This document shows positions 1,430 through 64,000 of a DNA stretch of 64,000 nt, one piece after another. Made by a program: the position numbers and the translations under genes. The number at the start of each line of letters is the position of its first letter. Positions within the stretch are counted from its first letter, which is position 1. The DNA comes from Opitutales bacterium (lineage in GTDB: Bacteria; Verrucomicrobiota; Verrucomicrobiia; Opitutales; PNEW01), in assembly GCA_963692525.1 (NCBI GenBank), contig OY829953.1:3908720-3972719 (forward strand). Reading direction: 5' to 3'. The notes under the pieces are model-generated. The model worked only from the letters and a program-made list of their open reading frames with translations, ran no database searches and was not told the origin of the DNA.

Positions 1430-3385
1430 ATGAAAATATGGGTAGCAGGATTTCTCAGCTTTATCTTGACCATTATGGGGCTCCAACTTTGGGCCGACGA
1501 TATCCCAGTTGAATCATTTTTTAAAAGCACCGGTTTTAGCAAGTTTCGCGTTTCCCCAAATGGAAAGTACTTGTCCGCATTGGCAGACTGGAAAGGCGCG
1601 ACAAACCTCTATGTAATCGATTTGAAATCCCGTACCCCGGTAAGAGTAACCGCTATTAAGGATCAGACGATCAAAGATTATTTTTGGGGAAATGATGATC
1701 GACTGGTATTCACCATGGATTACCACGGAAACGAATCGTGGGGACTATTCGCAGTTGATCGCGATGGGGAAAACCCAAGGGTCCTGGTTCCACCACTGAC
1801 ATCCACCGGCAGCTTTGTATTTCGCTACACCTGGCCTTTAGACCTCCTCAAAAAATCTCACGATGAAATTCTTGTCGTGAACAACGAAAGGAATGTCGAT
1901 TATCCTGATGTCTATCGCCTGAACATCAATGATGGTGGGAAAGTTCTAAGTGTTGCAAATCCCGGTACTTTCACAAAATGGTTTACCGATCAAAACAGCG
2001 ATGTTCGCCTCGCCGAGGCAAAGGACATTGATGGTAATACGAGCTATCACTATCGGGAAAGAGAGGACACGGAATGGGAGACGATCGCCAATTTCTCCTT
2101 TAAGGAAAAAAAATGGTCTCCTGCTGGACCTCAAAACAGGGAACACTTTCAAAATCTAAGACCACCGCAGCAGCCATTTGGTTATGATCGCAACATCCTT
2201 TACATCTCGAGCGATATCGACCGCGAAGTAGCCGCCCTGTATGAGTTTAATTTAAAAACACGTAAACGCGGAGGGATGCTCTTTGAGTGCCAATCGAATG
2301 ATGTTTCTCACTTAATTCTGTCCGATTTTATTCAAAAACCCGTGGGTGTTTATTTTGAAACTGATAAACTGCAGTCTTATTGGTTTCATAAAGAAAAACA
2401 AATGATCCAGGAATTTCTCGATCGCAAATTCCCAGGCCTAATCAGTGTTATCACCAGTGTGAGTGATGATCATTCACGTCTTGTGATTGCCAGTTACAGT
2501 GACCGTCATCCGGTAATTTTTTCGCTCCTCAGTATTATAGAGGGGAGATTGGATTTTGAAATCTTAGCCGACAACAGCATTATTGAACCTACACGCTTGA
2601 GCGAAGTGAAACCCATTGTATTTAAAGCGCGCGATGGGATCACTTTGCACGGTTATTTGACTTTGCCTAACGGTAAAAAACATAAAAATCTTCCCTTCAT
2701 AGTGCATCCCCATGGAGGGCCCTGGGTAAGAGATTCATGGGGCTATAATCCGGAATTACAATTTCTCGCCAGCCGGGGATTTGTTGTGTTACAAATAAAT
2801 TTTCGTTCCTCACAGGGCTATGGACGTGAATTCCTTCACGCGGGGGACAAACTTTGGGGAACAACGATGCAAACAGACTTAGTTGACGGAATCAATTGGG
2901 TTGTGGAACAGGGTATCGTTGATCGAAACCGTATTGGCATCTACGGCTCTAGTTATGGCGGCTATGCTACCATGGCTCAATTGGTTTTCTACCCGGAACT
3001 GTATCAATTTGGTATTACCGCTTTTGGCCCGATAGATTTAGTCAGCCTCATTAATTGGCGAAAAAAATGGAGGCAGAAGATTGCTTATGCTTTCTATACG
3101 AAAACAATTGGAGACCCTAAAGCAGATAAAGAGATGCTCAAAGCCTACTCACCTGTCAATTACCTGGAACGTATTCAGGCCCCTGTATTCATTGTTCATG
3201 GAACACGAGATGCCAGGGTACCCATCGATCAAGCAAAGAGGTTGCGCGCAGGATTAATCAAAGAAAACAAGGATTACGAGTGGCTCGTTAAGAAGGATGA
3301 AGGTCATGGGTTCAAAAAGACGAAAAATAAAATTGAACTTTATACGCGAATCGATGAGTTCCTCCAACCCTATCGCGACCAGTGA
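1430..3385 (+). CDS. S9 family serine peptidase (prolyl oligopeptidase / dipeptidyl aminopeptidase-like)
   Basis: 651 aa with an N-terminal hydrophobic signal and a propeller-like N half. The C-terminal hydrolase domain has the GSSYGGY nucleophile elbow, HGTRDARV and DEGHGF triad motifs. Confidence 0.85.
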   Translation: MKIWVAGFLSFILTIMGLQLWADDIPVESFFKSTGFSKFRVSPNGKYLSALADWKGATNLYVIDLKSRTPVRVTAIKDQTIKDYFWGNDDRLVFTMDYHGNESWGLFAVDRDGENPRVLVPPLTSTGSFVFRYTWPLDLLKKSHDEILVVNNERNVDYPDVYRLNINDGGKVLSVANPGTFTKWFTDQNSDVRLAEAKDIDGNTSYHYREREDTEWETIANFSFKEKKWSPAGPQNREHFQNLRPPQQPFGYDRNILYISSDIDREVAALYEFNLKTRKRGGMLFECQSNDVSHLILSDFIQKPVGVYFETDKLQSYWFHKEKQMIQEFLDRKFPGLISVITSVSDDHSRLVIASYSDRHPVIFSLLSIIEGRLDFEILADNSIIEPTRLSEVKPIVFKARDGITLHGYLTLPNGKKHKNLPFIVHPHGGPWVRDSWGYNPELQFLASRGFVVLQINFRSSQGYGREFLHAGDKLWGTTMQTDLVDGINWVVEQGIVDRNRIGIYGSSYGGYATMAQLVFYPELYQFGITAFGPIDLVSLINWRKKWRQKIAYAFYTKTIGDPKADKEMLKAYSPVNYLERIQAPVFIVHGTRDARVPIDQAKRLRAGLIKENKDYEWLVKKDEGHGFKKTKNKIELYTRIDEFLQPYRDQ

Positions 3386-3403
3386 TATGGGGTATCAAAA
3401 TAG

Positions 3404-3478
3404 CTTCGTCTTCGTCCTCTTTTTCCACAGCTTGCTATAACACGGACGAAGAGACTGACGTGGACGTAGACGAAGATT
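3404..3478. mobile_element. Shortest family-A element (75 bp, termini only)
   Basis: CTTCGTCTTCGTCC at the left end and GGACGTAGACGAAGATT at the right end are inverted copies. The right 37 nt match the right ends of the 14449-14802 and 26405-26820 elements. It sits 19 nt after the stop of the upstream gene. Confidence 0.55.
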
Positions 3479-3551
3479 AAAAATATAAACTTATTTGGAT
3501 CTTAATTCTTTATTTTATAAATTCGCGCTCTACTATTCGGTTTCAATTCGC

Positions 3552-4331
3552 ATGGAATTATCCTGTTGTATATGGGCCCTCAGCGGGCCGGAAGAAAAAG
3601 TATTAACTCAGATCGCCAACGCGGGTTTCAGTTGTATTGATCTTCAACCCTTTGTCTTTAATCCTGAAGACATTCAAACGCGTATTCATCACCTCAATCT
3701 TCAGGTTTCTTGTCTCGCCGCATCTTTTGGCATCCAAGAAGGCGTAGCACTCGATAGTGAGGACCCGTCTTCAACTGCCCAGGCGTTAGCCTATACCGGA
3801 AAGGCCCTTGAATATGGTAAAAATCTCGGTGCTAAAGTCGCCTACCTCGTACCGGGCGCAGATGGGAGTCCTGAGGCCCACTCCCGCTATGCGCGTTCAT
3901 ATTCCACCCTTGCCGATCAGGCTTCCACACTCGGATTAAAACTCTGCATCGAACACTTTCCCGGCAGTGCATTCCCAACCGCCTCTGCAACACTCAACTT
4001 TATACGGGGCATCGATCATCCCAATCTCTATCTTCTTCTCGATATTGGGCACACACAAATATCTAACGAAGACCCGGCCGAAGTCATCGCCTCCGCCGGA
4101 CCCAAACTTGGATATGTCCATTTGGACGACAACGACGGCCAAGGCGATTTACACTGGGCCCTGACGGACGGAGTCCAGACTGAAAATTCTCTTCGCCAGA
4201 CCTTTGAGGCGCTTGAAAAGATTCAATATAGTGGACCCGTCAGCCTGGAATTGAGCGCGAAACTGACCAATCCTCTCGATGCGTTAATACGCAGCAGAGA
4301 ATTGGTCCTAAACTTTGCATCGTTTAGTTAG
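3552..4331 (+). CDS. Sugar phosphate isomerase/epimerase (xylose isomerase-like TIM barrel)
   Basis: Family-typical motifs CIEHFPGS, LLLDIGH and YVHLDDNDG are present. The ORF track starts at TTG 3495; I prefer ATG 3552 (MELSCC...). Confidence 0.75.
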   Translation: MELSCCIWALSGPEEKVLTQIANAGFSCIDLQPFVFNPEDIQTRIHHLNLQVSCLAASFGIQEGVALDSEDPSSTAQALAYTGKALEYGKNLGAKVAYLVPGADGSPEAHSRYARSYSTLADQASTLGLKLCIEHFPGSAFPTASATLNFIRGIDHPNLYLLLDIGHTQISNEDPAEVIASAGPKLGYVHLDDNDGQGDLHWALTDGVQTENSLRQTFEALEKIQYSGPVSLELSAKLTNPLDALIRSRELVLNFASFS

Positions 4332-6062: not shown

Positions 6063-7769
6063 ATGACTCTTGTTGATTGGTTGCTCGTGCTCGTAATCAA
6101 TGGGGGCATCGTTCTCTATGGAATCGTTGTATTCAGGGGTAAAGGTGAAAGTTTTGACTGGTACCTCGCCGCAAAATCAATGCCCTGGTGGGTCATTGGT
6201 TTATCAGCCTTTGGGACGGCGGTCGACAGCGGCGATTATGTTTCTATTGTCGGCGGATCCTATGAATTAGGATTATCCCAATTATCCTCCTGGTGGTTGG
6301 GAATAGCGGTGGGATGGATCGTCCTGAGTTTTTTCGTTATCGTTCCGATGTACCGATCCGGTGTTTTCACCAATGCTGAATGGCTTGAATTTCGTTTTGG
6401 ACCTGGTGCCCGTGTCATTGCTGTTCTCATCAACATACAATCCCGCACCAATGTTCTGGGTAATATATTTTTCTCGCTCTATCTCGTCCTGAAGATCGTC
6501 GCTAATATCGGTTCGGGTTGGAGCTGGATGATTGTCGTGGGTGTTGCGATAACATCCGCAGTCTACATTGTCCGTGGCGGCTTGAAAGCGGGAGTTTTTA
6601 CCGATGCTCTACAGAGCACTATTATGATTGTAGCCGCTTTTGTTTTATGGGGAGTGGTCTGGGTAAAAGGAGGGGGATGGACAGGTCTCAATGAAAGACT
6701 GGTTGCCATCGATCCCGAATTAGCGGATACCCTCCTTCATGTTGGCGGTTACTCTCCGGATGGTGTCCCTGCGATCGTTGTCATCTTCGGATTTATCGTT
6801 GTCTTAACAACCTACGCGGTGATCAACCAGTACGAAGCCATCCGTTTTCTTGGAGCGAAATCGGAATGGGATTTCAAGATGGCCGCACTGGTAGCGAGCG
6901 TCGCGACCGCGATATGCCTTTGGTTTAATGTAAGCCTCGGGCCGCTGGCACACGCCGACTTTCCAAATCTTGAAACCGTAGACGCGGCCTACCCTTTAAT
7001 GATGGTAAAATACCTGCCGCCCGGCCTTATTGGTCTGGTCGTGGCCGGACTCATAGCTGCAGCCTACTCTACTTTTGATTCCGTCGCGATCGGCATATCC
7101 AGCCTTTTTGTGCGGGATATATACGCCCGATTTATCGTAAGAAATGCCGATGACGCCCACTATACACTAGTCGGTCGAATTTCTGTTCCCTTCATTATCG
7201 CGCTCGGATTTATCTATGTTCCTTTTATCCAGGATGGCATGCTGCTTTTTTTCCTGAGGTTGGCTGGTGCCATCGCGGTACCACTTATGACCATTATTCT
7301 GATGGGCGTTTTTACCCGCGTCCACCGTCGCACTGGCATTTTCGGTCTCCTTGTCGGCCTGACTTACGGAATCCTGGCCATTATTGCCGATGCCAATCAA
7401 TGGGGATGGCCGATATGGATCACCCATACCTGGTGGACCTATTTGTGGAATATATTATTGCCCGCTACGACCATGCTTATCATTTCGCGAGTGATCAGTA
7501 TTTTTCATGGACCGATGAAAGAGGAGGAATATAAAGGCCTCGTTTACGAGAGACATACCGTTACCGCGGAATTAAGGGAGCTCATGGGACATCGCTTAAA
7601 AGTATTGGAAGGCACCTGGCTGCAGAAAACGCTGATCGAAGCGCCGATCAATCCTGAGTATCCTTTTAAAATACCGCCCGGAGGATTGCCCTGGTATCGA
7701 CGACCCGGGTTATTAGCGATAATTTACCTCATCATTGTCTGTTATTTGCTTTTTATTTTGCTATGGTAA
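6063..7769 (+). CDS. Sodium:solute symporter (SSS) family transporter
   Basis: 568 aa with about 13-14 hydrophobic helices and the GGLKAGVFTDALQ SSS signature region. Confidence 0.8.
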   Translation: MTLVDWLLVLVINGGIVLYGIVVFRGKGESFDWYLAAKSMPWWVIGLSAFGTAVDSGDYVSIVGGSYELGLSQLSSWWLGIAVGWIVLSFFVIVPMYRSGVFTNAEWLEFRFGPGARVIAVLINIQSRTNVLGNIFFSLYLVLKIVANIGSGWSWMIVVGVAITSAVYIVRGGLKAGVFTDALQSTIMIVAAFVLWGVVWVKGGGWTGLNERLVAIDPELADTLLHVGGYSPDGVPAIVVIFGFIVVLTTYAVINQYEAIRFLGAKSEWDFKMAALVASVATAICLWFNVSLGPLAHADFPNLETVDAAYPLMMVKYLPPGLIGLVVAGLIAAAYSTFDSVAIGISSLFVRDIYARFIVRNADDAHYTLVGRISVPFIIALGFIYVPFIQDGMLLFFLRLAGAIAVPLMTIILMGVFTRVHRRTGIFGLLVGLTYGILAIIADANQWGWPIWITHTWWTYLWNILLPATTMLIISRVISIFHGPMKEEEYKGLVYERHTVTAELRELMGHRLKVLEGTWLQKTLIEAPINPEYPFKIPPGGLPWYRRPGLLAIIYLIIVCYLLFILLW

Positions 7770-11714: not shown

Positions 11715-11970
11715 ATTCTTCGTCACCGTCTTCGTCTGCCTTTTCGTCTTTTATTTTTTAGCTGGTTTTAAGTAAAATATTCTTACAATCCAAGGTGGAG
11801 CGGGCTGCGATTCGGCTGAGCTCATCGAAGTCCTGTCCGACATAGCCTTGGCGACGGCTGATCCCTAGCACGCTTCTTCAATTACGACTTTCTCAAACGC
11901 GCTAGGGACAGCGCGTTCCACCTTTATATATTAAAGAATACTTACGATGAGGCAGACGAAGACGAAGATT
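11715..11970. mobile_element. Family-A element, 256 bp, filled form
   Basis: AATTCTTCGTC...CTTCGTC on the left and GACGAAGACGAAGATT on the right. The interior is GGTGGAGCGGGCTG + 54-nt core module + CCCTAGCACGC...GCGCTAGGG hairpin + CAGCGCGTTCCACC. It lies between convergent genes. Confidence 0.6.
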
Positions 11971-14448: not shown

Positions 14449-14802
14449 CTCTTCGTCTGCCTCTTAGTCTTCGTCCCAGACGCCCTAATACTTCATGATT
14501 ATTGTAGCTTAAGATGGAGCGGGCTGCGATTCGGCTGAGCTCATCGAAGTCCTGTCCGACATAGCCTTGGCGACGGCTGATGCATAGCACGCTCCTTCAA
14601 CTACAACTAACTTAAACGCGTTAGGGATCAGCCATCCTGGAGGGCCACGCTCCTGCCTGTCCGACATAGCCTTGGCATCGGCTGATCGTGGCCGTTAATA
14701 ACATTTCAAAGCGGACGCAATGGAATGCGTCCCTCCATTCCTTATAAAATAATAGGATCTCTATAACAGACGAAGAGCCTGACGTGGACAAAGACGAAGA
14801 TT
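14449..14802. mobile_element. Family-A element, 354 bp long form
   Basis: CTCTTCGTCTGC on the left and GACAAAGACGAAGATT on the right. It is nearly colinear with 26405-26820, including the GGAGGG-GGCCACG...CGTGGCC-GGACGCAatggaaTGCGTCC-CTCC module. Confidence 0.6.
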
Positions 14803-19130: not shown

Positions 19131-19180
19131 AATCTTCGTCTTCGTCTCGCTGTAATAAGCACAATAGCACGGCAAGGGAA
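19131..19180. repeat. Family-A remnant (left terminus only)
   Basis: AATCTTCGTCTTCGTC followed by sequence resembling the interior of 3404-3478. No right terminus is present. Confidence 0.4.
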
Positions 19181-22541: not shown

Positions 22542-22573
22542 TTTTGACTTTTTGACCTTTTGACTTTTTGACT
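22542..22573 (+). repeat. (TTTTGACY)4 octamer array
   Basis: ttttgact ttttgacc ttttgact ttttgact, ending 8 nt before ATG 22582. It is identical to the array at 34291-34322. Confidence 0.9.
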
Positions 22574-22581
22574 TAACAACA

Positions 22582-26404: not shown

Positions 26405-26820
26405 CTCTTCGTCTTCGCTTGCCACGTCGTAGACTTCTGCGAAGACGGGTATGCCTTCATCGTCTTGTAGGTTACACCTTGATACTTCATAAATATTGTA
26501 GCTTAAGGTGGAGCGGGCTGCGATTCGGCTGAGCTCATCGAAGTCCTGTCCGACATAGCCTTGGCGACAGCTGATCTCAAGCACGCTTCTTCAATTACGA
26601 CATAATTAAACGCGCTAGGGACAGCGCGTTCCACCTTAATATTGCCATAGAAATATGGAGGGCAACGCTCCTGCTTGTCGGCCATAGCCATGGCGTCGGC
26701 TGATCGTGGCCGTTGACAACATTTCAAAGCGGACGCAATGGAATGCGTCCCTCCATTCCTTATAAAATAATAGGATCTCTATAACAGACGAAGAGACTGA
26801 CGGGGACGAAGACGAAGATT
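26405..26820. mobile_element. Family-A element, 416 bp, longest copy
   Basis: CTCTTCGTCTTCGC on the left and GACGAAGACGAAGATT on the right, with all modules present (see findings). ORF-track entries 26285..26584 and 26503..26727 lie inside it and are not credible. Confidence 0.65.
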
Positions 26821-33990: not shown

Positions 33991-34108
33991 TATGCTCAGG
34001 GCAGGTTGGGTTCTGGGTTCACCGTACTGGGTTCAAAGCTAGAACTATGGCGGTGTGATACAGAATTCACGACGCAGGTTACTAGATTTAATGATATTGA
34101 TTAAGAAA

Positions 34109-34266
34109 GATGGAACGCGCTGTCCCTAGCGCGTTAGTTATAAGTATTAATAATAGAAGCGCGCTGAGGACCAACATTCGCCAAGGCTATGGCAGGCAGG
34201 ACTTCGATGAGCTCCCTTCGGCATGAGCTCAGGGCCGAATGCAGCCGAATCGCAGCCCGCTCCACC
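34109..34266. repeat. Family-A core in inverted orientation, long-insert variant, no terminal repeats
   Basis: GATGGAACGCGCTGTCCCTAGCGCG ... CGCAGCCCGCTCCACC, carrying the extra TTCGGC/GCCGAA hairpin variant also seen at 63920-63965. Confidence 0.7.
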
Positions 34267-34290
34267 TAAAACGCGTTCGCGTCTTCAACG

Positions 34291-34322
34291 TTTTGACTTT
34301 TTGACCTTTTGACTTTTTGACT
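34291..34322 (+). repeat. (TTTTGACY)4 octamer array
   Basis: The same 32-mer as 22542-22573, located 76 nt upstream of ATG 34399. Confidence 0.9.
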
Positions 34323-34398
34323 TTTATCATATTACCCTCGGTTTGAAAAATACCGGGATATATATTTTATTAATAAATATGATGAAGGAGATTAAAGA

Positions 34399-35283: not shown

Positions 35284-35448
35284 ATCTTAATCGTCGAGAT
35301 ACCGAGATGTAATTAACAGGTAATTGAAAAAAATAAAGTTGATGATTCAGGATTCGGGAAGACAGTGATCAGTCGCTTTCGTTGTCTCTGTGGTGAAATT
35401 AAAGTTGCTCGCATTTTGCACTTCTTTGTCATTGCGAAGGTGGAACGC

Positions 35449-35560
35449 GGTGTCCCTACCGCGTTTAATAGTTACATTGAGTTAAGAAGCGCACTGAGAT
35501 CAGCCGTCGCCAAGGCTATGTCGGACAGGACTTCGATGAGCTCAGCCGAATCGCGGCGTG
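35449..35560. repeat. Family-A partial element (inverted orientation, G/C hairpin allele)
   Basis: GGTGGAACGCGGTGTCCCTACCGCG ... ATCAGCCGTCGCCAAGGCTATGTCGGACAGGACTTCGATGAGCTCAGCCGAATCGC. Confidence 0.7.
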
Positions 35561-35632
35561 TTTTATTTTTGACAAAGATTGGGAGGAAGATGTCATTCAA
35601 ACCAAATTCTTATTTTCTTCACCGCATACACG

Positions 35633-35691
35633 CATTTGAGGATATCGGGCTTCGCCCTCGGCACGCTTCACCGCATTCACGCATAACCGCC
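35633..35691 (-). repeat. C unit (GTGCCGAGGGCGAAGCCCGATATCCTCAAATG on the minus strand) with flanking homology
   Basis: It matches 50201-50232 and 59361-59392, and ends 12 nt before ATG 35703. Confidence 0.8.
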
Positions 35692-37657: not shown

Positions 37658-37697
37658 GGGGTTTGCGGGCAGGTAGTAATTCTCATCATACAAATAA

Positions 37698-37807
37698 GCT
37701 TCGTCTTCGTCCAATTTATTTCTATACTCCCAGTAACCTATGAGCGAGTGTAGGATTAGATGAAGTCTAGTGTTTCACTAATCCTTGAATACTCTGAGAC
37801 GAAGATT
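37698..37807. mobile_element. Family-A short element (110 bp)
   Basis: GCTTCGTCTTCGTCC on the left and CTGAGACGAAGATT on the right, with an internal GGATTAG/CTAATCC inverted repeat. Confidence 0.5.
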
Positions 37808-37835
37808 ATTTCTCAGCCTGTTTCTTGCAACCCAA

Positions 37836-37995
37836 GGTGGAGCGGGCTGCCTGACCGCCATAGCCTTGGCGTCGGCTGGTTCCCTAGCACGCTTCTTCAT
37901 TTACGACTTCATACAACGCGCCGAAGATCAGCCGTCGCCAAGGCTATATCGGAGAGGACTTCGATGAGCTCAGCCGAATCGCAACACGTTCCACC
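37836..37995. repeat. Family-A core, fully palindromic form with a core module on both arms
   Basis: GGTGGAGCGGGCTGC + CCATAGCCTTGGCGTCGGCTGG + central hairpin + ATCAGCCGTCGCCAAGGCTATATCGG...GAGCTCAGCCGAATCGC + GTTCCACC. Confidence 0.7.
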
Positions 37996-38085
37996 ATGAT
38001 CCTATATTAAATAAGCGGGACGAAAGGGAATCACCCCTTACGCCCCTTAGTTTAAACTTAAAAACTGCTAACTATTTCCTACGCC

Positions 38086-41673: not shown

Positions 41674-41838
41674 GTCAAAAGGTCAAAAAGGGAGGAGCGC
41701 TGATGCGCGTATTAAATTATAAGATAATTAACTTTATACAAGCATTGCTACTTTTTACTGATCACTGATAAATGATTTCTGTCTAGACATCCTGCATCAT
41801 CCAACGTTTTGACCTTTTGACTTTTTGACCTTTTGACT
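41674..41838. repeat. Inverted pair of octamer arrays flanking a 116-bp AT-rich core
   Basis: (GTCAAAAR)2 at 41674-41689 and (TTTTGACY)4 at 41807-41838, lying between convergent genes. Confidence 0.85.
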
Positions 41839-46279: not shown

Positions 46280-46338
46280 CTGGAGGGCCACGCTCCTGCC
46301 TGTCGGCCATAGCCTTGGCGTCGGCTGATCGTGGCCGT
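46280..46338 (+). repeat. Solitary core-in-stem module
   Basis: CTGGAGG-GCCACG-ctcctgcc-TGTCGGCCATAGCCTTGGCGTCGGCTGAT-CGTGGCC-GT, identical in plan to the internal modules at 14638-14696, 26655-26713 and 61319-61378 (inverted). Confidence 0.8.
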
Positions 46339-46438
46339 AGACTTTAAAATACGATTTACCTTTTAATGTATACACTTCGTGCTGTTATATTAACATTTTA
46401 CGAGAGAAGAACCGTTTTTAAAAAAAGGAACCCGAACA

Positions 46439-48073: not shown

Positions 48074-48330
48074 GGCCAGAGAGCCAGAAAATCGGAAAGC
48101 CAGCGAGAAGGAACAAGTGATTCATGACGTTGTATAAGAAGCGTGTCGGGGGAGCCAGCCTTCCTTGTTTAGTCTCAGACTACATCGATTAATCAGACAG
48201 TCCGACTATCTGGTCCTCTGGTTTGGTAGATGTCGTTCCACGACTGCGGAACTCGGTACTGACTTTCCGACATTCCGGTTTTCCGGTATTCTGGATTTCT
48301 GGATTTCTGGCCCTCTGGTTTTCAGGATGT
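48074..48330. repeat. Composite low-complexity/palindromic intergenic block including a D unit
   Basis: GCCAGAGAGCCAGAAAATCGGAAAGCCAGC on the left is answered by TTCCGGTTTTCCGGTATTCTGGATTTCTGGATTTCTGGCCCTCTGG on the right. The D unit at 48210-48261 matches 59431-59482. Confidence 0.7.
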
Positions 48331-49592: not shown

Positions 49593-49598
49593 CTATTA

Positions 49599-49674
49599 GT
49601 CAAAAGGTCAAAAAGTCAAAAGGTCAAAAAGGAAATGCGATTAAGCTTTTGACTATTTGACCAGTACCTTTGAC
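49599..49674. repeat. Inverted octamer arrays filling the gap between two cistrons
   Basis: (GTCAAAAR)4 at 49599-49630 starts 6 nt from the ATG (49592, minus strand). The degenerate CTTTTGAC TATTTGAC ... CTTTGACC at 49646-49674 abuts the upstream stop at 49675. Confidence 0.85.
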
Positions 49675-50145: not shown

Positions 50146-50296
50146 GTCAAAAGGTCAAAAAGTCAAAAGGTCAAAAGGATATGCGTGAACGCGATTAAGC
50201 GTACCGAGGGCGAAGCCCGACATCCTCAAATGTGGAAATAACTTTCACCCTTAAACTTTTTGACCTTTTGACCTTTTGACCTTTTGACCTTTTGAC
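50146..50296. repeat. Inverted octamer arrays flanking a C unit
   Basis: (GTCAAAAR)4 at 50146-50177 starts 6 nt from ATG 50139 (minus strand). The C unit is at 50201-50232 and (CTTTTGAC)5 at 50256-50296. A GCGAC aagg GTCGC hairpin follows. Confidence 0.9.
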
Positions 50297-53874: not shown

Positions 53875-54075
53875 CACCCCAGCGGGGTGTAACATTCGTA
53901 GCCCGCAGCGTAAGCTGTGGGTTAAAATATGTGCCATATAAATTAAGCCCCAGCGGGGCGACACAATAACCGTCGAAAGCGATGTTGTGTCGCCCCGCTG
54001 GGGCTCTGAATTATAAAATATCACTCCCACCCACAGCTCACGCTGTGGGCTAAACCTATGCCGCCCCTCCGGGGC
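53875..54075. repeat. Mirror-symmetric array of five hairpins
   Basis: CACCCCagcGGGGTG (53875-89). CCCGCAGC-GTAA-GCTGTGGG (53902-21). A 20-bp perfect stem, GCCCCAGCGGGGCGACACAA / TTGTGTCGCCCCGCTGGGGC (53947-54004). CCCACAGC-TCAC-GCTGTGGG (54030-49). GCCCCtccGGGGC (54063-75). Confidence 0.85.
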
Positions 54076-54206
54076 TGATAGAGTACGTTAAGGATAAGTT
54101 TTAACATCTTCCTTTTTACATTAATTCGTAAGTATCTAACAGTGATGAGGGGGAAGCCGATGACCAAGATAACCGTGATTATACTTTGCCTTAATGCCTT
54201 TTATAA

Positions 54207-58536: not shown

Positions 58537-59271
58537 ATGAAAGCACTTCTCGTAAGGGTTGGAATTGATAGCGCTTTTGGTAATTGGAATGCGCCGATAG
58601 ATCCGCAATCGAGGGAATTTGTTTACCTTCCCATTCCAGAAGTTATGCCGAGCCATAAGCATCTGGAGCGTCGTTATACCGAGACCTTGCCAGTATTAAA
58701 ACAGTTTTGTGAAAAATATAAATTGGATTTAGCGCGTGATCTTAATTTTCCAACTTCTCTCTTAAATAAAAAAATGCATTTGGATCCGGATTTCCATGAA
58801 CTGACTTATGGTGATAATGGTGCTAGACGCGGCGTTAATATGTCCCGTATGAAATCTGGTGATGTTCTTGCCTTTTATTCAAGTTTGCGACCAATTAAAG
58901 CGTGTGCGCATACTCTAATATATGCTATAATTGGTCTTTATGTAGTTAAAGAAGTTGTTTCTGTAGGAGAAGTGCAGAAGAAGCTATGGAAACAGAATGC
59001 TCATACCCGTAGAGCAAATCCGCTGGCAGCGGAGATTGTCGTGAGAGCAGAAAAGAATGAATCAGGGCGCTTGGAAAGCTGCATCCCGATTGGGGAGTGG
59101 CGTGATCGAGCTTATCGTGTGCGCGGGGATCTTATTAAAAAGTGGGGAGGAATATCAGTAAATAATGGCTACATACAACGTAGTGCCGTACCACCAGCAC
59201 TTACTCACCCCCAGCGATTTTATGACTGGTTTTTAAAGCAAAACGTCACGCTTATTAAGACGAATAATTAA
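58537..59271 (+). CDS. Hypothetical protein (possible nucleotide-modification-associated fold; unverified)
   Basis: 244 aa. The N terminus, LLVRVGIDSAFGNWNAPIDPQSREFVYLPIPE, reminds me of an R-x-G-x-D-S ... P-I-P-[DE] signature. That is recollection only, with no search run. Confidence 0.5.
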   Translation: MKALLVRVGIDSAFGNWNAPIDPQSREFVYLPIPEVMPSHKHLERRYTETLPVLKQFCEKYKLDLARDLNFPTSLLNKKMHLDPDFHELTYGDNGARRGVNMSRMKSGDVLAFYSSLRPIKACAHTLIYAIIGLYVVKEVVSVGEVQKKLWKQNAHTRRANPLAAEIVVRAEKNESGRLESCIPIGEWRDRAYRVRGDLIKKWGGISVNNGYIQRSAVPPALTHPQRFYDWFLKQNVTLIKTNN

Positions 59272-59279
59272 GTTTATAG

Positions 59280-59535
59280 GTCAAAAAGTCGAAAAGTATA
59301 CGCGTACCGAGGTCGAAGTCCGACATCCTCACATGCGTTTAAGCGGTTATGCGATAAAGAGTGCCGAGGGCGAAGCCCGACATCCTCAAATGGGAATAAG
59401 CGGATACTGCTATGAATTTCCTGCAACACTCTGACCTTCTGGCTTGGAAGATGTCGTTCCGCGAATATGGAACTCGGAACCGGTTCTCTAGCCTTCCTGC
59501 ATAAATCCGCAATCGCATATCGCAAATCGACAATT
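59280..59535. repeat. Mosaic of octamers, two C units, a D unit and AATCCGCAATCG motifs
   Basis: GTCAAAAA GTCGAAAA at 59280-59295, C units at 59304-59335 and 59361-59392, the D unit at 59431-59482, and AATCCGCAATCGCATATCGCAAATCG at 59507-59532. It fills the whole gap between convergent genes. Confidence 0.85.
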
Positions 59536-59539
59536 GTTA

Positions 59540-60271
59540 TCATCCTCTCCCTAAATACAACTGCCCTACGGGTAGAGTGATACACTCATACATATTTACG
59601 TGGGGAGGTAAAGTAACTACGGTGAGCACAACCTTTGCAATATCATCAACAGACATCATGGGTTCCTGGTCTTGGACAGAATCACTCACCACTCGCCGCT
59701 CGATCGCAACATTGCCTGGATGCACACAACTGGCGGCAACCCCAAAATCACGCCCTTCGAGGGCGGTAGCCTTCGTTAATCCCGCAATACCAAATTTGGT
59801 CGCGACATAAGGAGCTGAATTCAGGCGAGGCATCTGGCCCGAAATGCTGCCAATATTGACTATCCTTCCACCTCCCTGCCCTTTCATGATTTTCATCGCT
59901 TCCCGACTACAGAGAAACGTTCCTGTGAGGTTCAAATCGACGACCTGACTCCATTCCTGAAGCGATAATTCATCTATCGATTTACCTACACTTATACCCG
60001 AATTATTAATCAGGATATCCAGACGCCCAAAACTATCCATCGTCTGTTTGAATAGGGCGATGACTGCTTCTTCTTTAGTAATATCAGTCGGAATTACTTT
60101 AACTTCCGAATTATATTCTTTTAGTTCATCTGCGGTCTTTTGCAGATTATCTTCATTACGTGAAGCGAGTACAAGCTGTGCGCCCGCACCGGCTAACGCT
60201 CGAGAAATACCTTTACCAATACCAGTACCGGCTCCCGTAACGATGGCGATTTTACCTTCTAATTCACTCAT
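59540..60271 (-). CDS. Short-chain dehydrogenase/reductase
   Basis: Contains VTGAGTGIGKG, NNSG and YVATKFG motifs. Confidence 0.85.
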   Translation of the reverse strand: MSELEGKIAIVTGAGTGIGKGISRALAGAGAQLVLASRNEDNLQKTADELKEYNSEVKVIPTDITKEEAVIALFKQTMDSFGRLDILINNSGISVGKSIDELSLQEWSQVVDLNLTGTFLCSREAMKIMKGQGGGRIVNIGSISGQMPRLNSAPYVATKFGIAGLTKATALEGRDFGVAASCVHPGNVAIERRVVSDSVQDQEPMMSVDDIAKVVLTVVTLPPHVNMYECITLPVGQLYLGRG

Positions 60272-60500
60272 GGTTTTTTTATTTTTAATTTATATTTGCT
60301 TTTTAAATACGTGTGTTTTGCCAATCTTTACAACAATTCATCATAACTGGAAGCAAAGGCATTAGTGAGCTTTATATTTTAAGACGCTCAATTTACACAA
60401 TAGTAAAATGGAGAAATAACGATGTGTGACTGATAACCATTCACTGGTTAGAGATTCTTCTATTCAATCGAAAATCGAACATCCCGCAATCCGCAATCGT

Positions 60501-60627
60501 CAGTGGCCCTCCAGAAGGGCTGTTCCAGAGCTCGCTTCTTTAATTACGACAAATCTAACGCGGTAGGGACACCGCGTTCCACCTTGATTTTGTATTATAT
60601 AGACGAAGAGGTAGACGTAGACGAAGC
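60501..60627. repeat. Family-A right half (G/C hairpin allele) with right terminus
   Basis: CAGTGGCCCTCCAG ... AACGCGGTAGGGACACCGCGTTCCACC ... AGACGAAGAGGTAGACGTAGACGAAGC. Confidence 0.65.
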
Positions 60628-60641
60628 TTTATATAATAAAA

Positions 60642-61115
60642 CTAATAATTAAGGGGCTGATTTATTTTTATAGGACGCATGAAGGTATAACGAAATTGTC
60701 CATGCAGTGTCGTCTCTTTCATTTTCCAACCTAAATATTTATAAAACCCATTAGCACGAGAATGCGGATCGGCCCCGGTATCCAACCAGATTTCATCATA
60801 GCCCTGTTCCCATAACCAGTGCATGGCCAATTCTAATAAACCGCGACCTATACCTTGACCTTCATAGTCGGGTAAAACAAATAAAGCCCAAACAGATCGT
60901 GTCCGTTTATTGGCAATAGAAAAACCGACCAAAAGGTCATCGGATTCCGCTACCCATCCTTTGCAATCAGACTTAAAGGCCTCTTTCACACTTTCCTGCG
61001 TTATCCCCATATTTCTCAACTCCAGGAGAGACAAGTAGTTCTCTCTCACTTTTACGCGTACCTTAAAAATGGTCGGGATATCCTCGGCTATGGCTTCACG
61101 AAATATCATCTGCAA
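60642..61115 (-). CDS. GNAT family N-acetyltransferase
   Basis: 157 aa. LPDYEGQGIGRGLLE is the acetyl-CoA-binding Q/RxxGxG motif. Confidence 0.8.
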   Translation of the reverse strand: MQMIFREAIAEDIPTIFKVRVKVRENYLSLLELRNMGITQESVKEAFKSDCKGWVAESDDLLVGFSIANKRTRSVWALFVLPDYEGQGIGRGLLELAMHWLWEQGYDEIWLDTGADPHSRANGFYKYLGWKMKETTLHGQFRYTFMRPIKINQPLNY

Positions 61116-61197
61116 AATAAATAATCGAGAAAGATCCTATAAACACCCTATGTATAGATCAAGAAAAAGCGGATAATCCCTCCTACTTCCACCTTGA

Positions 61198-61545
61198 ATA
61201 ATCTTCGTCTGCGTCTTTAATAAGGCTCCTTAGAAATGGAGGGACGCACGGAGCATGTCGGCCATAGTACCGCAACAGCGAAGACGACGGCTGATTGCGT
61301 CCGTTTGACAAGATGGTTACGGCCACGATCAACCGACGCCAAGGCTATGGCCGACAGGCAGGAGCGTGGCCCTCCAGGCGACGGCTGACCCCAAGCGCGC
61401 TTCTTCATTTACAACTCACTTAAACGCGCTAGGGACCAACCTTCGCCAAGGCTATGGCTGGCAGGACTTCGATGAGCTCAGCCGAATCGCAGCGCGTTCC
61501 ACCATGATATTATAGTTAATGATTGGACAGACGAAGACGAAGATT
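61198..61545. mobile_element. Family-A element, 348 bp, inverted module order, with an extra nested core
   Basis: AATAATCTTCGTCTGCGTC on the left and GACGAAGACGAAGATT on the right. The GGACGCA/TGCGTCC hairpin carries a 47-nt core-like insert in its loop. Confidence 0.6.
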
Positions 61546-61581
61546 TCAATTACTCAATGCCTTATTCTGGCATATTTCCAT

Positions 61582-62688
61582 TCAAAAATCATTATCACTC
61601 TCGAGCATTGAAATAGATAAGGGAGTACCCTTCCTTTCTCCATGCATCATAGCGACTCGCTGACATAGGGGAGTCAGTTGGCTTGCGATATATTTTGCTC
61701 CCTCATTATTGGGATGAAATCCATCTGGAAAAAAGAACCCGTATGAATTCGGTGAATCGTAATCCATGTCCTTTAAATTGAGAACCATTGCATCTTTATA
61801 AAATTCATCACGAATTTTATTATTATAGCTAAGAATACCACTTAACCGCGGCGCACGATTGGATACAGGAGGTAAGATAAGAATAATTTCGGTATTGTGT
61901 TCACTTGCCGCGGTGACAAAAGTTTTAAAATTAGCAATCGCATCCTCCATCGGAACTCTCACATTCTTATTAATCTGAGAATGTTGGCCGGCAGGTTGTT
62001 TTATGTACGTTTGATAAAGTGATTCGAATGCGAGGTAAGTGTGAGTTTTTTGAATCCATTTAAGAGGAGCGGCATGAGTAAACTGCAAGAGGTTTAGATA
62101 CTGGTTGTCAGTTAAGAGGGGTGTTTCCCAGATATCATTCCATCCAAAGTAAATAATGAGGAGATCCGGGTTGACCTTGGAAAACCACCTATCGAATACA
62201 ACTTTTCCTTGACTGCTGCTGTAGCCGGGCTGCGAAAAGTTGTAGACTTTAAATGCACCTGACTGTTCACCTAATCTCTCTTCCAATATCGACTGAAACG
62301 TAAGGCGATAATCTAAAATGCCCCAACCAAAAGCACACGAGTCTCCAAGGATCATAACCTTTGTCTCATTATCACTATGCAGATTTGGATCATAAACATT
62401 ACCGCGAAAGCCTAAAGCGTTAATACCCGTATAGCCCTGAATCGGTTCTCCTGATGGATTTTGCTGAACGTGAAATAATAAGCCAGCATCAGGATGTGAG
62501 AGCTCATTTTCTCTCAATGTATATTTTATCGTGCTGGGAATGTTACTTGCCGCATAAGCGGGTAAACCAAGTTTGCGAAAATTGATATAGAGTGGTCGGG
62601 CAAAAAAACAGGTTAACTCAAGACCTCCAAAAAAGAGCCCAACAACGATGGCCGCAAAAAACATCCTCTTCTTTAAAGAAAAGTTCAT
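61582..62688 (-). CDS. SGNH/GDSL hydrolase, membrane-anchored
   Basis: ATG 62688 is preceded by AGGAGG. It has an N-terminal TM, then ILGDSCAFGWG (block I), GWND and DGFHPN (block V). The ORF-track start at 62772 is probably an extension. Confidence 0.8.
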   Translation of the reverse strand: MNFSLKKRMFFAAIVVGLFFGGLELTCFFARPLYINFRKLGLPAYAASNIPSTIKYTLRENELSHPDAGLLFHVQQNPSGEPIQGYTGINALGFRGNVYDPNLHSDNETKVMILGDSCAFGWGILDYRLTFQSILEERLGEQSGAFKVYNFSQPGYSSSQGKVVFDRWFSKVNPDLLIIYFGWNDIWETPLLTDNQYLNLLQFTHAAPLKWIQKTHTYLAFESLYQTYIKQPAGQHSQINKNVRVPMEDAIANFKTFVTAASEHNTEIILILPPVSNRAPRLSGILSYNNKIRDEFYKDAMVLNLKDMDYDSPNSYGFFFPDGFHPNNEGAKYIASQLTPLCQRVAMMHGERKGTPLSISMLESDNDF

Positions 62689-63068
62689 TTGCCTCCTCTT
62701 TTCCTGATCACCTGAAGTACCTTTATCACGATTGGGAACACCAGGTTTATAATCTCTGTATTTTAGTGCCATTCTTCTTTATATTACACTGCTACACTTA
62801 CTGTAAATTCGGATAAAATTCATTTGCAGTGGTTAGTCTCTCAAAACGAACTAATTTTCTGTATAATTCAATGTCATTTTTTTTCTAAAGTGCAATATTA
62901 GAAAATTGACTCCCGCCTGACACTTTGAACCTGTCTCTTAACTCTTAACACTGAATAATTTAATTTTTTTCACTTTTTCCGGGAAGAAAATGGTGCGTCA
63001 CGGCTCTAAGTTTATAATTCAGTGTTTTCGTACATTGTTAACTTATAAACAAACACATACTTATAAAT

Positions 63069-63440
63069 ATGAAATATATTAGCAGTCTTTTGACATGTTG
63101 TATTCTCTTACCTCTTCTCACCGCCTTGGGTTCTGGCGATTATTCGCCACCGCCACGCACCACAGATCATAGTTCCATCTCGTCGGCATCGGCCACTAAA
63201 AACAATATCGATGGGACCCGTTTCAATCTTGGTAAAAATATATATTTGGGGAAGATTGATTTACCGGCAGATCCTATTAATGAGGCAAATTACGAAACGC
63301 AAAATAAAATTCTCACCAAATTGAAAATAACTTTACCTAAAAGCGTAGTAAAAAAACTCGACGCTGCAGCTTTCTCGGGCCGTTTAACTAAAAAGCAATT
63401 TGATAGTTTAAGGTATTTTTTAATTAAACGTTTTAAGTAG
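63069..63440 (+). CDS. Hypothetical secreted protein
   Basis: Signal peptide (LLTCCILLPLLTALGSG); 123 aa and Lys-rich. No family was recognised. Confidence 0.45.
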   Translation: MKYISSLLTCCILLPLLTALGSGDYSPPPRTTDHSSISSASATKNNIDGTRFNLGKNIYLGKIDLPADPINEANYETQNKILTKLKITLPKSVVKKLDAAAFSGRLTKKQFDSLRYFLIKRFK

Positions 63441-63484
63441 AACTAAGCTGAATGGTGTTAGGATAGAACGTATGGATTTGTCGT

Positions 63485-63692
63485 ATTAGTCTTCGTCTCT
63501 GGCTAATATAGATTATCTTGCAATCCATGGTGGAGCGGGCTGTCCCTAGCACGCTTCTTCAATTACAACTTAATCAAACGCGCTAGGGACAGCGCGTTCC
63601 ACCTATCTATTCTATTAATAACTGGATGGACGAGGAGGCTGACCCGTCTTCGCAGTAGTCTACGACGTGGCAAGCGCGGACAGAGACGAAGA
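63485..63692. mobile_element. Family-A element, empty form (no core module)
   Basis: ATTAGTCTTCGTC on the left and GACAGAGACGAAGATG on the right. The interior GGTGGAGCGGGCTG-TCCCTAGCACGC ... GCGCTAGGGACAGCGCGTTCCACC is an uninterrupted 26-bp-arm palindrome. Confidence 0.6.
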
Positions 63693-63727
63693 TGATTGTT
63701 ATACATAGCAGTGAATCAAGCGCGGGC

Positions 63728-63861: not shown

Positions 63862-64000
63862 ATTAGTCTTCGTCTCTGGCAAATATAGATTATCTTGCAA
63901 TCCATGGTGGAGCGGGCTGCGATTCGGCTGCATTCGGCCCTGAGCTCATGCCGAAGGGAGCTCATCGAAGTCCTGTCCGACATAGCCTTGGCGACGGCTG
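63862..64000. repeat. Family-A element, filled form, truncated by window end
   Basis: The same 85-nt left part as 63456-63542, but GGGCTG is followed by the long core module (CGATTCGGCTGCATTCGGCCCTGAGCTCATGCCGAAGGGAGCTCATCGAAGTCCTGTCCGACATAGCCTTGGCGACGGCTG). Confidence 0.7.

Follow-up and report, generated by a model that had tools for sequence, protein, structure and literature searches.

Sequences of the repetitive extragenic palindromic (REP) type are the closest described counterparts of the element analyzed here, a 416-bp composite at positions 26405-26820 of a 64-kb window (the whole stretch of 64,000 nucleotides under analysis, from contig OY829953.1 of an Opitutales bacterium). Canonical REPs carry the tag GT[AG]G 0-2 nt 5' of the foot of a hairpin, whose basal stem of 7-20 fully paired nucleotides may be topped by an upper stem across a bulge of 1-3 nt (PMC6006769). 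Long-hairpin REPs start from a 4-nt tag at their foot, continue with a basal stem and, beyond a bulge, end in an upper stem (PMC6006769; PMC3733652). Another group, described by Di Nocera et al. (2013), bears a CGTC tag, an 8-9-bp stem starting from A-T pairs, a 4-5-nt loop and a CCA tail; REPs inserted within other palindromes are also on record, as are mosaic clusters such as bacterial interspersed mosaic elements (BIMEs) and Neisseria intergenic mosaic elements (NIMEs) (PMC3733652). The 416-bp composite contains two copies of a 30-nt hairpin unit, and the evidence tilts, by a little, towards regarding the whole as a REP/BIME-like nested mosaic in which this unit would be a mobile DNA of REP-like character that targets hairpins and is moved in trans. 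For GTAG REPs, current opinion takes the doublet, rather than one hairpin alone, as what moves, and to our knowledge a candidate enzyme is known for GTAG REPs only.

The 30-nt hairpin unit and its filled and empty sites

The unit follows the formula C-N-T-G + NCNGCC-AUA-[variable hairpin]-GAC-GGCUGN. The 5' tag CNTG is unpaired and was CCTG in 119, CTTG in 24, CGTG in 9 and CATG in 5 of 165 tags. Bases 4-9 (NCNGCC) pair with GGCUGN to form a 6-bp basal stem, whose third pair was open in 37 of 90 sequences. Above the stem lies a conserved 3x3 internal loop with AUA facing GAC, or GUA facing GAA in some variants, while the upper hairpin is free in sequence and ranges from 8 to about 40 nt (GC-CUUG-GC, GCUC-GAUA-GAGC, GCCC-AAC-GGGC and GCUCC-GCA-GGAGC are examples). 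The flanks differ between matches, yet usually form a stem enclosing the unit. A degenerate 28-nt core, CTGNCNGNCATAGCCNTGGCNNCNGCTG, matched the window exactly eight times, with zero matches expected from 100 shuffles. A covariance model built on 66 sequences detected 14 units in the window, all at E <= 4e-5, and 133 in the window and the genome loci combined. Units are chiefly single; an inverted pair occupies one scaffold of the window (37850+/37928-), and tandem pairs were found in loci L055 and L101.

The closing pair and the inner hairpin of the unit covary strongly. In an alignment of 92 distinct sequences fitted to the covariance model, the closing pair N4-N29 was CG in 34, UA in 33, UG in 12, AU in 3 and other in 7, and the third upper-stem pair was CG in 80 and UA in 10; the covariation score of the same alignment was 0.184, as against 0.109 ± 0.007 after shuffling (0 of 500 shuffles reached 0.184) and at most 0.058 with slid partners. 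Raw regular-expression counts of the closing pair agree (T-A 44, C-G 40, T-G 10, A-T 4, non-pairs 9). The 51 distinct upper hairpins held 167 Watson-Crick pairs, one G-T and three A-C.

Empty sites were sought by joining the 14-nt flanks of each unit and searching the window and the genome and metagenome loci with the product. An exact or near-exact empty site was recovered for 18 of 173 distinct unit junctions, and none of the 18 filled/empty pairs showed a duplication at the unit ends. The contexts included Opitutales scaffolds, module 2 of Oleiharenicola (a scaffold described below) and three further repeat contexts in Verrucomicrobiota; an uncultured bacterium contributed a perfect palindrome (GGGGCAATTCATG^AATTGCCCC, the caret marking the junction), and other empty sites lay in metagenome contig L095, in arrays of octamer repeats (…CTTT^TGAC…), in the CUUG loop of a second unit and in a tRNA-like gene. 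In the Opitutales scaffold the empty form reads GGTGGAGCGGGCTG^TCCCTAGC…, and in the filled form CCTG…GGCTGN stands exactly between those two bases, in either arm. Two paralogs at L037 have an identical inner loop and differ by exactly the 30 nt. The tRNA-like gene (L034, 2598-2703, in the Peribacteria metagenome-assembled genome (MAG) CAYFMH01) holds an antisense unit in its D-loop and was recognized by ARAGORN only once the 30 nt were deleted; it has an 8-nt anticodon loop and is a paralog of the adjacent tRNA-Lys, which provides the empty site. At L158 (~7000-7060, metagenome) a unit lies within the CUUG loop of a second unit, …CGGCCGTAGCCTTG^unit^GCGAAGGCTGA…, a case of self-nesting. The right flank of the unit seldom begins with C.

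The octamer arrays form a repeat of their own. Arrays of TTTTGACY (GTCAAAAG on the opposite strand), intergenic and of 4-5 copies each, are present in the window at 22542-22574, 34291-34325, 41807-41838, 49598-49632, 50146-50178 and 50258-50296, as well as in the Opitutales MAG CBDCNV01 and a metagenome contig; some are split by a unit at …TTT^TGAC…. They are reminiscent of the intergenic heptamer repeats (TAACTGA) of Beggiatoaceae (PMC4679880).

The units resemble REP, BIME and REPIN (REP doublet) sequences of Enterobacteria and Pseudomonas, which are associated with Y1 enzymes (REP-associated tyrosine transposases, RAYT/TnpA-REP), in being imperfect palindromes of 20-40 nt that are intergenic and of high copy number (14 in 64 kb). 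The unpaired 4-nt 5' tag, the succession of basal stem, mismatch or bulge and upper stem, the mosaic clustering, the lack of duplication at the insertion point and the scarcity of copies with an adjacent transposase are likewise shared with REPs and BIMEs. By contrast to canonical REPs, the tag is CNTG (GTAG and GTGG were not seen among the 165 tags), the basal stem has 6 bp with one position often unpaired instead of 7-20 fully paired nucleotides, the units are mostly singletons and not the inverted doublets of REPINs and BIMEs, and the core is common to several phyla, unlike that of REPs, which as a rule are lineage-specific and passed on vertically. The CGTC super-family also consists of tagged stem-loops that are spread over several phyla and have no identified transposase dedicated to them, some of them in mosaic clusters (Neisseria dRS3/NIME) (PMC3733652), but the unit consensus has none of the CGTC tag, A-T-started 8-9-bp stem, 4-5-nt loop and CCA tail. 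On account of its CNTG tag, shorter basal stem, mostly single occurrence and core common to several phyla, the unit falls outside both the GTAG and the CGTC super-families.

Other systems of small folded DNA are less close. Members of the IS200/IS605 group of insertion sequences (IS) possess two separate hairpins in subterminal position and depend on a strict target of 4-5 nt at the left end, whereas the unit is one hairpin with a weak preference for G/TG. Integron attC sites have a folded-strand layout that resembles the unit, in that their basal stem is conserved, their central spacer is unpaired, and a second stem leads to a terminal structure whose length varies greatly; however, the units are dispersed singly and lack RYYYAAC/GTTRRRY boxes, cassette open reading frames (ORFs) and an integrase context. 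Yeast mitochondrial GC clusters are comparable very small hairpin-forming repeats. The repetitive hairpin-forming elements of sponge mitochondria are also tiny, invade intergenic regions and sometimes genes, and have no known transposase (PMC2800124). These mitochondrial elements differ in being organellar, unrelated in sequence and devoid of a conserved tag or internal loop.

Nested composites and their turnover

The sequence-only reading had described 26405-26820 as a non-coding element with inverted termini and a chain of interior modules. Its ends are indeed CTCTTCGTCTTCGC and GACGAAGAGACTGACGGGGACGAAGACGAAGATT, inverted GTCTTC/GAAGAC hexamer arrays, every module was found in the order given, and the proposed 54-nt core-bearing insert is a genuine discrete piece. 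Folding of the entire element as single-stranded DNA paired its two ends at -74.7 kcal/mol, compared with -54.1 ± 4.2 for shuffled sequences (z = -4.9). Three levels are nested from outside to inside: a hexamer-array shell, two scaffolds (GGTGGAGCGGGCTG…CAGCGCGTTCCACC and GGAGGG…CCCTCC), and 30-nt units in the scaffold loops. The second scaffold, module 2, runs TGGAGGG-(GCAACG…CGTGGCC hairpin with unit 2)-(GGACGCA ATGGAA TGCGTCC hairpin)-CTCCA. A companion hairpin of 24 nt, fam2, sometimes precedes the unit in scaffold loops; it was found solely in Opitutales loci (CBDCNV01, CBDANS01 and the window) and eight of the nine copies stood directly 5' of a unit, the exception being a degenerate copy in L067. 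A third small insert is nested within fam2 at two copies of the window, at 63905 (+) and in 34107-34270 (-).

Family members were verified at each site that had been listed, by self-BLAST, repeat search and inspection of the sequence. The proposed sibling at 14449-14802 is colinear (self-BLAST match 14480-14802, 84% identity over 347 nt), and partial self-BLAST matches to 26405-26820 were obtained at 3435, 11792, 34107, 35437, 37847-37995, 46281, 60529, 61294-61503, 63539-63676 and 63906-64000. An independent repeat search of the window recovered the same repeat families. The terminal motif occurs 16 times (<=3 mismatches) and sequence identity among copies is 78-98%. The non-coding nature of the family was borne out, and every copy in the window is located between long ORFs. 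The description of most copies as lying just after stop codons or between convergent genes did not fit the 26405 copy, which lies between divergent genes, with an aminotransferase gene (minus strand) to one side and an unknown gene (plus strand) to the other.

Turnover of the composites is evident against CBDCNV01, whose locus L051 is syntenic with window 58800-63715 at ~96% identity; the bacterium from which the window comes is therefore closely related to this MAG. The 346-bp composite at 61200-61545 corresponds in L051 to the termini and an unrelated 26-nt spacer only. The scaffold at 63529 contains hairpin B in the window and fam2 plus a unit in L051, with identical arms, and the truncated copy at 60501-60629 is an inverted part of the full L051 composite, with the right terminus retained. 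These comparisons indicate that shell positions are stable while interiors are exchanged, inverted or deleted. Shells with only a short spacer exist in the window (3401-3478) and in L051. Unit subtypes follow the host scaffold (TCGGCC…GTC…A in module 2, TCCGAC…GAC…A in scaffold A and fam2, CCGGCC…GAC…G in short-tandem-repeat contexts), which means that, once a limited number of insertions had taken place, composites were multiplied in their entirety.

Separately from the composites, an insertion of 1.35 kb lies in L051 at 2265-3611, within the coding region whose window ortholog is 63069-63440 (at ~63285); the window lacks it. It is probably an IS, since its ORFs (2296-3375) share a BLAST cluster with transposase ORFs bearing an rve domain (IS3/IS481 type).

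Distribution, proposed mechanism and alternatives

Whether the family is confined to this contig had been left as a question by the sequence-only reading. It is not: the syntenic stretch of CBDCNV01 and ~28 other loci of that MAG carry it. A scan of 185,579 species-representative genomes, a collection outside which the window's own genome lies, gave 87 loci matching the unit core; the pattern demanded exact matches at 21 fixed positions, so the identity of the core across phyla is partly imposed by the query. About 28 of the 87 loci belong to CBDCNV01, and the other Verrucomicrobiota were Lacunisphaera, Oleiharenicola and Cephaloticoccus. With taxa as labelled in the MAG records, further matches came from Dependentiae/TM6/Babeliales (one a closed 1.3-Mb chromosome), Peribacteria, Saccharibacteria and Sumerlaeota, and several matching MAGs bear the label Pseudomonadota. 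Matches in Ramlibacter, within a coding repeat, and in one Actinomycetota MAG resemble chance. A metagenome scan in which the upper hairpin alone was freed yielded at least 120 loci, some of which, in high-GC contigs and with non-CNTG tags, are probably chance or coding. Among 2.9 million viral contigs there was one unit match, and a plasmid search gave no significant match. Unit copy number differs strongly between genomes and the distribution is patchy. The module-2 scaffold, with covarying stems, is also present in Lacunisphaera and Oleiharenicola.

Two recurrent contexts were noted in the course of these scans. In TM6-like low-GC loci (L015, L022, L030, L040, L054, L056, L078 and many metagenome loci) units stand in another scaffold, (T)GTCATCCTG…GGATC / GGAGTGATT, which looks like a separate widespread hairpin repeat family. 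A unit sub-type in the context CTCTTG^unit^TGGCTATTC is found in sense orientation shortly upstream of several genes (L050 ~7067, L053 ~4172-4251, L057 ~6878, L048 ~3233, L063 ~6476); the downstream genes in L050, L053 and L057 are paralogous SBP_bac_5 solute-binding-protein genes, and L053 also has an empty version of the context. A coding role for these units as signal peptides was ruled out by an in-frame stop codon.

Exact presence or absence without duplication, the preference for loops and the nearly pure Watson-Crick pairing of the upper hairpin suggest an element that works at the level of DNA, folded as a single strand. The unit would be a tiny non-autonomous mobile DNA, cut-and-pasted or copied in this folded form by an enzyme encoded elsewhere and acting in trans. 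A HUH/Y1-type enzyme, of the RAYT or IS200/IS605 sort, is inferred to be the most economical mechanism; the IS200/IS605 model would entail transposition of a folded single strand, recognition of the hairpin, no duplication and precise excision. Insertion, without duplication, would prefer sites after G/TG, exposed hairpin loops and short tandem repeats. Composites, whether scaffold plus unit or whole shells, may then have been amplified as wholes, and recombination between the many copies could have reshuffled them by inversion, replacement and deletion.

Several observations count against this proposal. The left flank is weakly conserved (G at -1 in 66%, TG in 34%), where known Y1 systems require a fixed target of 4-5 nt beside the left end, and units showed no strand bias (42 versus 43 relative to local GC skew, a noisy proxy), where a transposon using single-stranded DNA of the lagging strand would be expected to be biased. 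No Y1/RAYT homolog was detected by tblastn, with IS200 and IS608 TnpA queries, in the window and the 87 genome loci (~0.78 Mb). The weak target consensus, the lack of strand bias and the lack of a candidate gene in the DNA examined weaken the HUH/Y1 step in particular. In addition, filled/empty pairs fit precise excision as well as insertion, some of them could stem from gene conversion among copies, and a near-identical core across phyla is atypical for the usually lineage-specific REPs, although the scan pattern enforced part of this identity.

The earlier statement that the window has no transposase stands for the Y1, IS3 and IS481 types, which are the types tested. The single IS200 copy near a unit, in metagenome contig L155, was rejected as mobilizer, its end hairpins being unrelated. 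All-against-all clustering of the ORFs around units gave no family common across phyla, and a Pfam scan of 85 ORFs adjoining units returned housekeeping genes, among which no family recurred; the ORFs lying between two units were likewise housekeeping genes. A literature search for the literal core sequence returned no paper, and searches on Dependentiae repeats and structured RNAs of Opitutus returned nothing relevant. As far as Rfam and these searches reach, the family is uncatalogued.

A further-reaching proposal, which we put forward tentatively and with more doubt than belief, is that the CNTG hairpin is an unrecognized, exceptionally small mobile DNA whose moving form is one hairpin and whose targets are exposed loops and short tandem repeats; it would have spread to distant phyla including reduced-genome symbionts (TM6 and the candidate phyla radiation, CPR), mobilized either by a family of enzymes not yet described or by some ubiquitous activity of the host.

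The alternative that survives best, though improbable, is that the unit, perhaps together with module 2, acts as a structured RNA (a protein-binding hairpin, an mRNA stabilizer or processing site, or a small ribozyme) spread by selection. A conserved basal stem and a loop-E-like AUA/GAC internal loop beneath a terminal hairpin free in sequence and length are typical of RNA motifs. The strong covariation, the GUA/GAA variants, the greater tolerance of the closing pair for U-G than for C-A (19 versus 3) and the sense subset just upstream of solute-binding-protein genes also speak for this reading. However, with genes called as simple long ORFs, units in co-directional intergenic regions showed no orientation bias to flanking genes (19 sense, 13 antisense; another 22 were in convergent and 15 in divergent regions), and units lie antisense inside a tRNA-like gene and also inside other units. 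The near absence of G-T from the upper hairpins (one in 171 pairs) is unlike variable RNA helices, and multi-copy, present/absent behaviour is that of mobile DNA. The 26405 element had no match in Rfam (release 15) at the gathering threshold or at E <= 10, and eight other unit loci gave no unit match at E up to 1. Resemblance of the core to the 5' end of 5S rRNA and to a tRNA acceptor/D-arm was dropped, as the Rfam 5S and tRNA models did not match and the pairing register differs; a sigma-54 promoter had unsuitable spacing and the hammerhead core motif was absent.

The sequence-only reading had implied a single transposon of which 26405-26820 is the longest copy, that is, a classical miniature inverted-repeat transposable element (MITE) moved from terminus to terminus by a DDE transposase recognizing AATCTTCGTCTTCGTC, with the short copies as deletion derivatives. 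This is unlikely. Inverted termini (AATCTTCGTCTTCGTC / GACGAAGACGAAGATT) do stand at the shell ends, the colinear 26405 and 14449 copies lose homology at the termini, the size is typical of MITEs, and the related genome has IS3 and IS481 transposases. Yet the flanks of 14 copies bounded by these terminal inverted repeats (TIRs) showed no consistent direct repeat as target-site duplication, and the IS3 and IS481 copies, found in CBDCNV01 loci and absent from the window, lack these termini. Furthermore, orthologous sites keep the termini while the interior is absent, replaced or inverted, and terminus-only shells exist. The modules are separate nested elements, each found with and without its loop insert and recurring alone outside a TIR context (e.g. 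at 46280), and what is conserved is the 30-nt unit, which extends far beyond the genome and the phylum in unrelated flanks.

Slightly less probable still are host-domesticated sites, namely sites at which a nucleoid protein, a protein of the gyrase/IHF type or one of replication/repair would bind the cruciform or duplex, selected and passively recombined with no dedicated transposition. A host-protein binding role has been proposed for E. coli BIMEs, and the units are intergenic, orientation-independent, placed among housekeeping genes and strongly constrained in core sequence, with evident recombination between copies. Passive recombination nevertheless leaves unexplained the exact 30-nt insertions into a tRNA-like gene, octamer arrays and hairpins of different phyla, nor does it sit well with the patchy occurrence and strongly variable copy number. 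Host use of such sites and REP-like mobility are not mutually exclusive. An assembly artefact, with the repeats arising from a mis-assembled metagenomic contig, can practically be dismissed, as independent assemblies, including a two-contig 4.5-Mb MAG, share the family at syntenic and non-syntenic sites and the copies have diverged from each other.

Features of the window and significance

The features of the 416-bp composite and the other copies in the window are collected in Table 1.

Table 1. Positions of the composites, modules and hairpin units in the window (unit, 30-nt hairpin unit).
Feature	Position	Strand	Contents or evidence
Whole composite, outer hairpin shell and nested contents	26405-26820	+	sequence, self-BLAST, fold
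Left terminus, GTCTTC-type hexamer array (CTCTTCGTCTTCGC)	26405-26418	+	
Sub-terminal module	26419-26456	+	inverted copy at 63636-63686, 86% complementary over 51 nt (inverted-repeat search)
Scaffold arm A, GGTGGAGCGGGCTG	26507-26520	+	
24-nt fam2 hairpin insert, CGATTCGGCTGAGCTCATCGAAGT	26521-26544	+	between arm A and hairpin B
Unit copy 1 (CCTGTCCGACATAGCCTTGGCGACAGCTGA), slightly decayed	26545-26574	+	covariance model 47.5 bits, E = 5e-10
Scaffold inner hairpin B (…AGCACGC…GCGCTAGGGA)	26575-26621	+	
Scaffold arm A' (CAGCGCGTTCCACC)	26622-26635	+	pairs with arm A, enclosing hairpin B
Module 2 (scaffold 2), GGAGGG…CCCTCC	26656-26755	+	two hairpins
Unit copy 2 (CTTGTCGGCCATAGCCATGGCGTCGGCTGA)	26674-26703	+	loop of first module-2 hairpin; 45.2 bits, E = 2e-9
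Right terminus, GAAGAC-type hexamer array	26787-26820	+	final bases GACGAAGACGAAGATT
Minimal shell	3401-3478	+	two inverted hexamer arrays and short spacer, no nested content
Composite without module 2	11715-11970	+	termini, scaffold A/B, fam2, unit 11832-11861
Colinear sibling composite	14449-14802	+	units 14551-14580 and 14656-14685; fam2 14527-14550
Solo terminus, AATCTTCGTCTTCGTC	19131-19146	+	
Scaffold A/B copy	34107-34270	-	fam2 holding a further 27-nt insert; decayed unit 34171-34200
Truncated scaffold	35437-35557	-	fam2 and unit 35500-35529
Composite	37696-37998	+	scaffold with oppositely oriented units in its two arms (37850-37879 +, 37928-37957 -)
Solo terminus	40620		
Isolated module-2 hairpin	46280-46342	+	unit 46299-46328, 53.9 bits, top-scoring unit of the window
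Truncated copy	60501-60629	+	inverted relative to full element at orthologous CBDCNV01 site (L051)
Full composite	61200-61545	-	units 61329-61358 (-) and 61436-61465 (-)
Long-P3 variant unit	61254-61294	+	loop of GGACGCA hairpin, inside composite 61200-61545
Composite with empty scaffold (GGTGGAGCGGGCTG^TCCCTAGC…)	63485-63694	+	arm A from 63529
Composite cut off by window end	63862-64000	+	unit 63972-64000

Other repeats and one known RNA were recorded in the window. A second hairpin repeat family (…GCGTACCGAGGGCGAAGCCCGACATCCTCAAATG), unrelated to the composites, has four copies, at 50180-50232, 59283-59335, 59340-59392 and, inverted, 35622-35690. A 68-nt repeat (…GGTAGATGTCGTTCCACGACTGCGGAACTCGG…) with a GTTCC…GGAAC hairpin lies at 48209-48276 and 59430-59497, and also in CBDCNV01 and at L077 ~3786-3900. 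The sole Rfam family in the window is a full-length Acido-Lenti-1 RNA at 54030-54076 (+), scoring 44.5 bits (gathering threshold 37).

How REP-like hairpins spread is unsettled, and here a single 30-nt hairpin is exactly present at some sites and absent from their counterparts, across many unrelated contexts and phyla. Mosaics of this kind matter for annotation, as they fill intergenic regions, can interrupt tRNA-like genes and produce spurious ORFs in MAGs. The units could serve as natural markers of strain-level turnover in Opitutales, TM6 and CPR genomes. Because the signature of tag, basal stem and internal loop is sharply defined, any enzyme that recognizes the unit should be identifiable. 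If the further-reaching proposal above is correct, CNTG hairpins would constitute a distinct third super-family beside the REPs of the GTAG and CGTC types and would lend themselves well to studying how REP-like sequences move.

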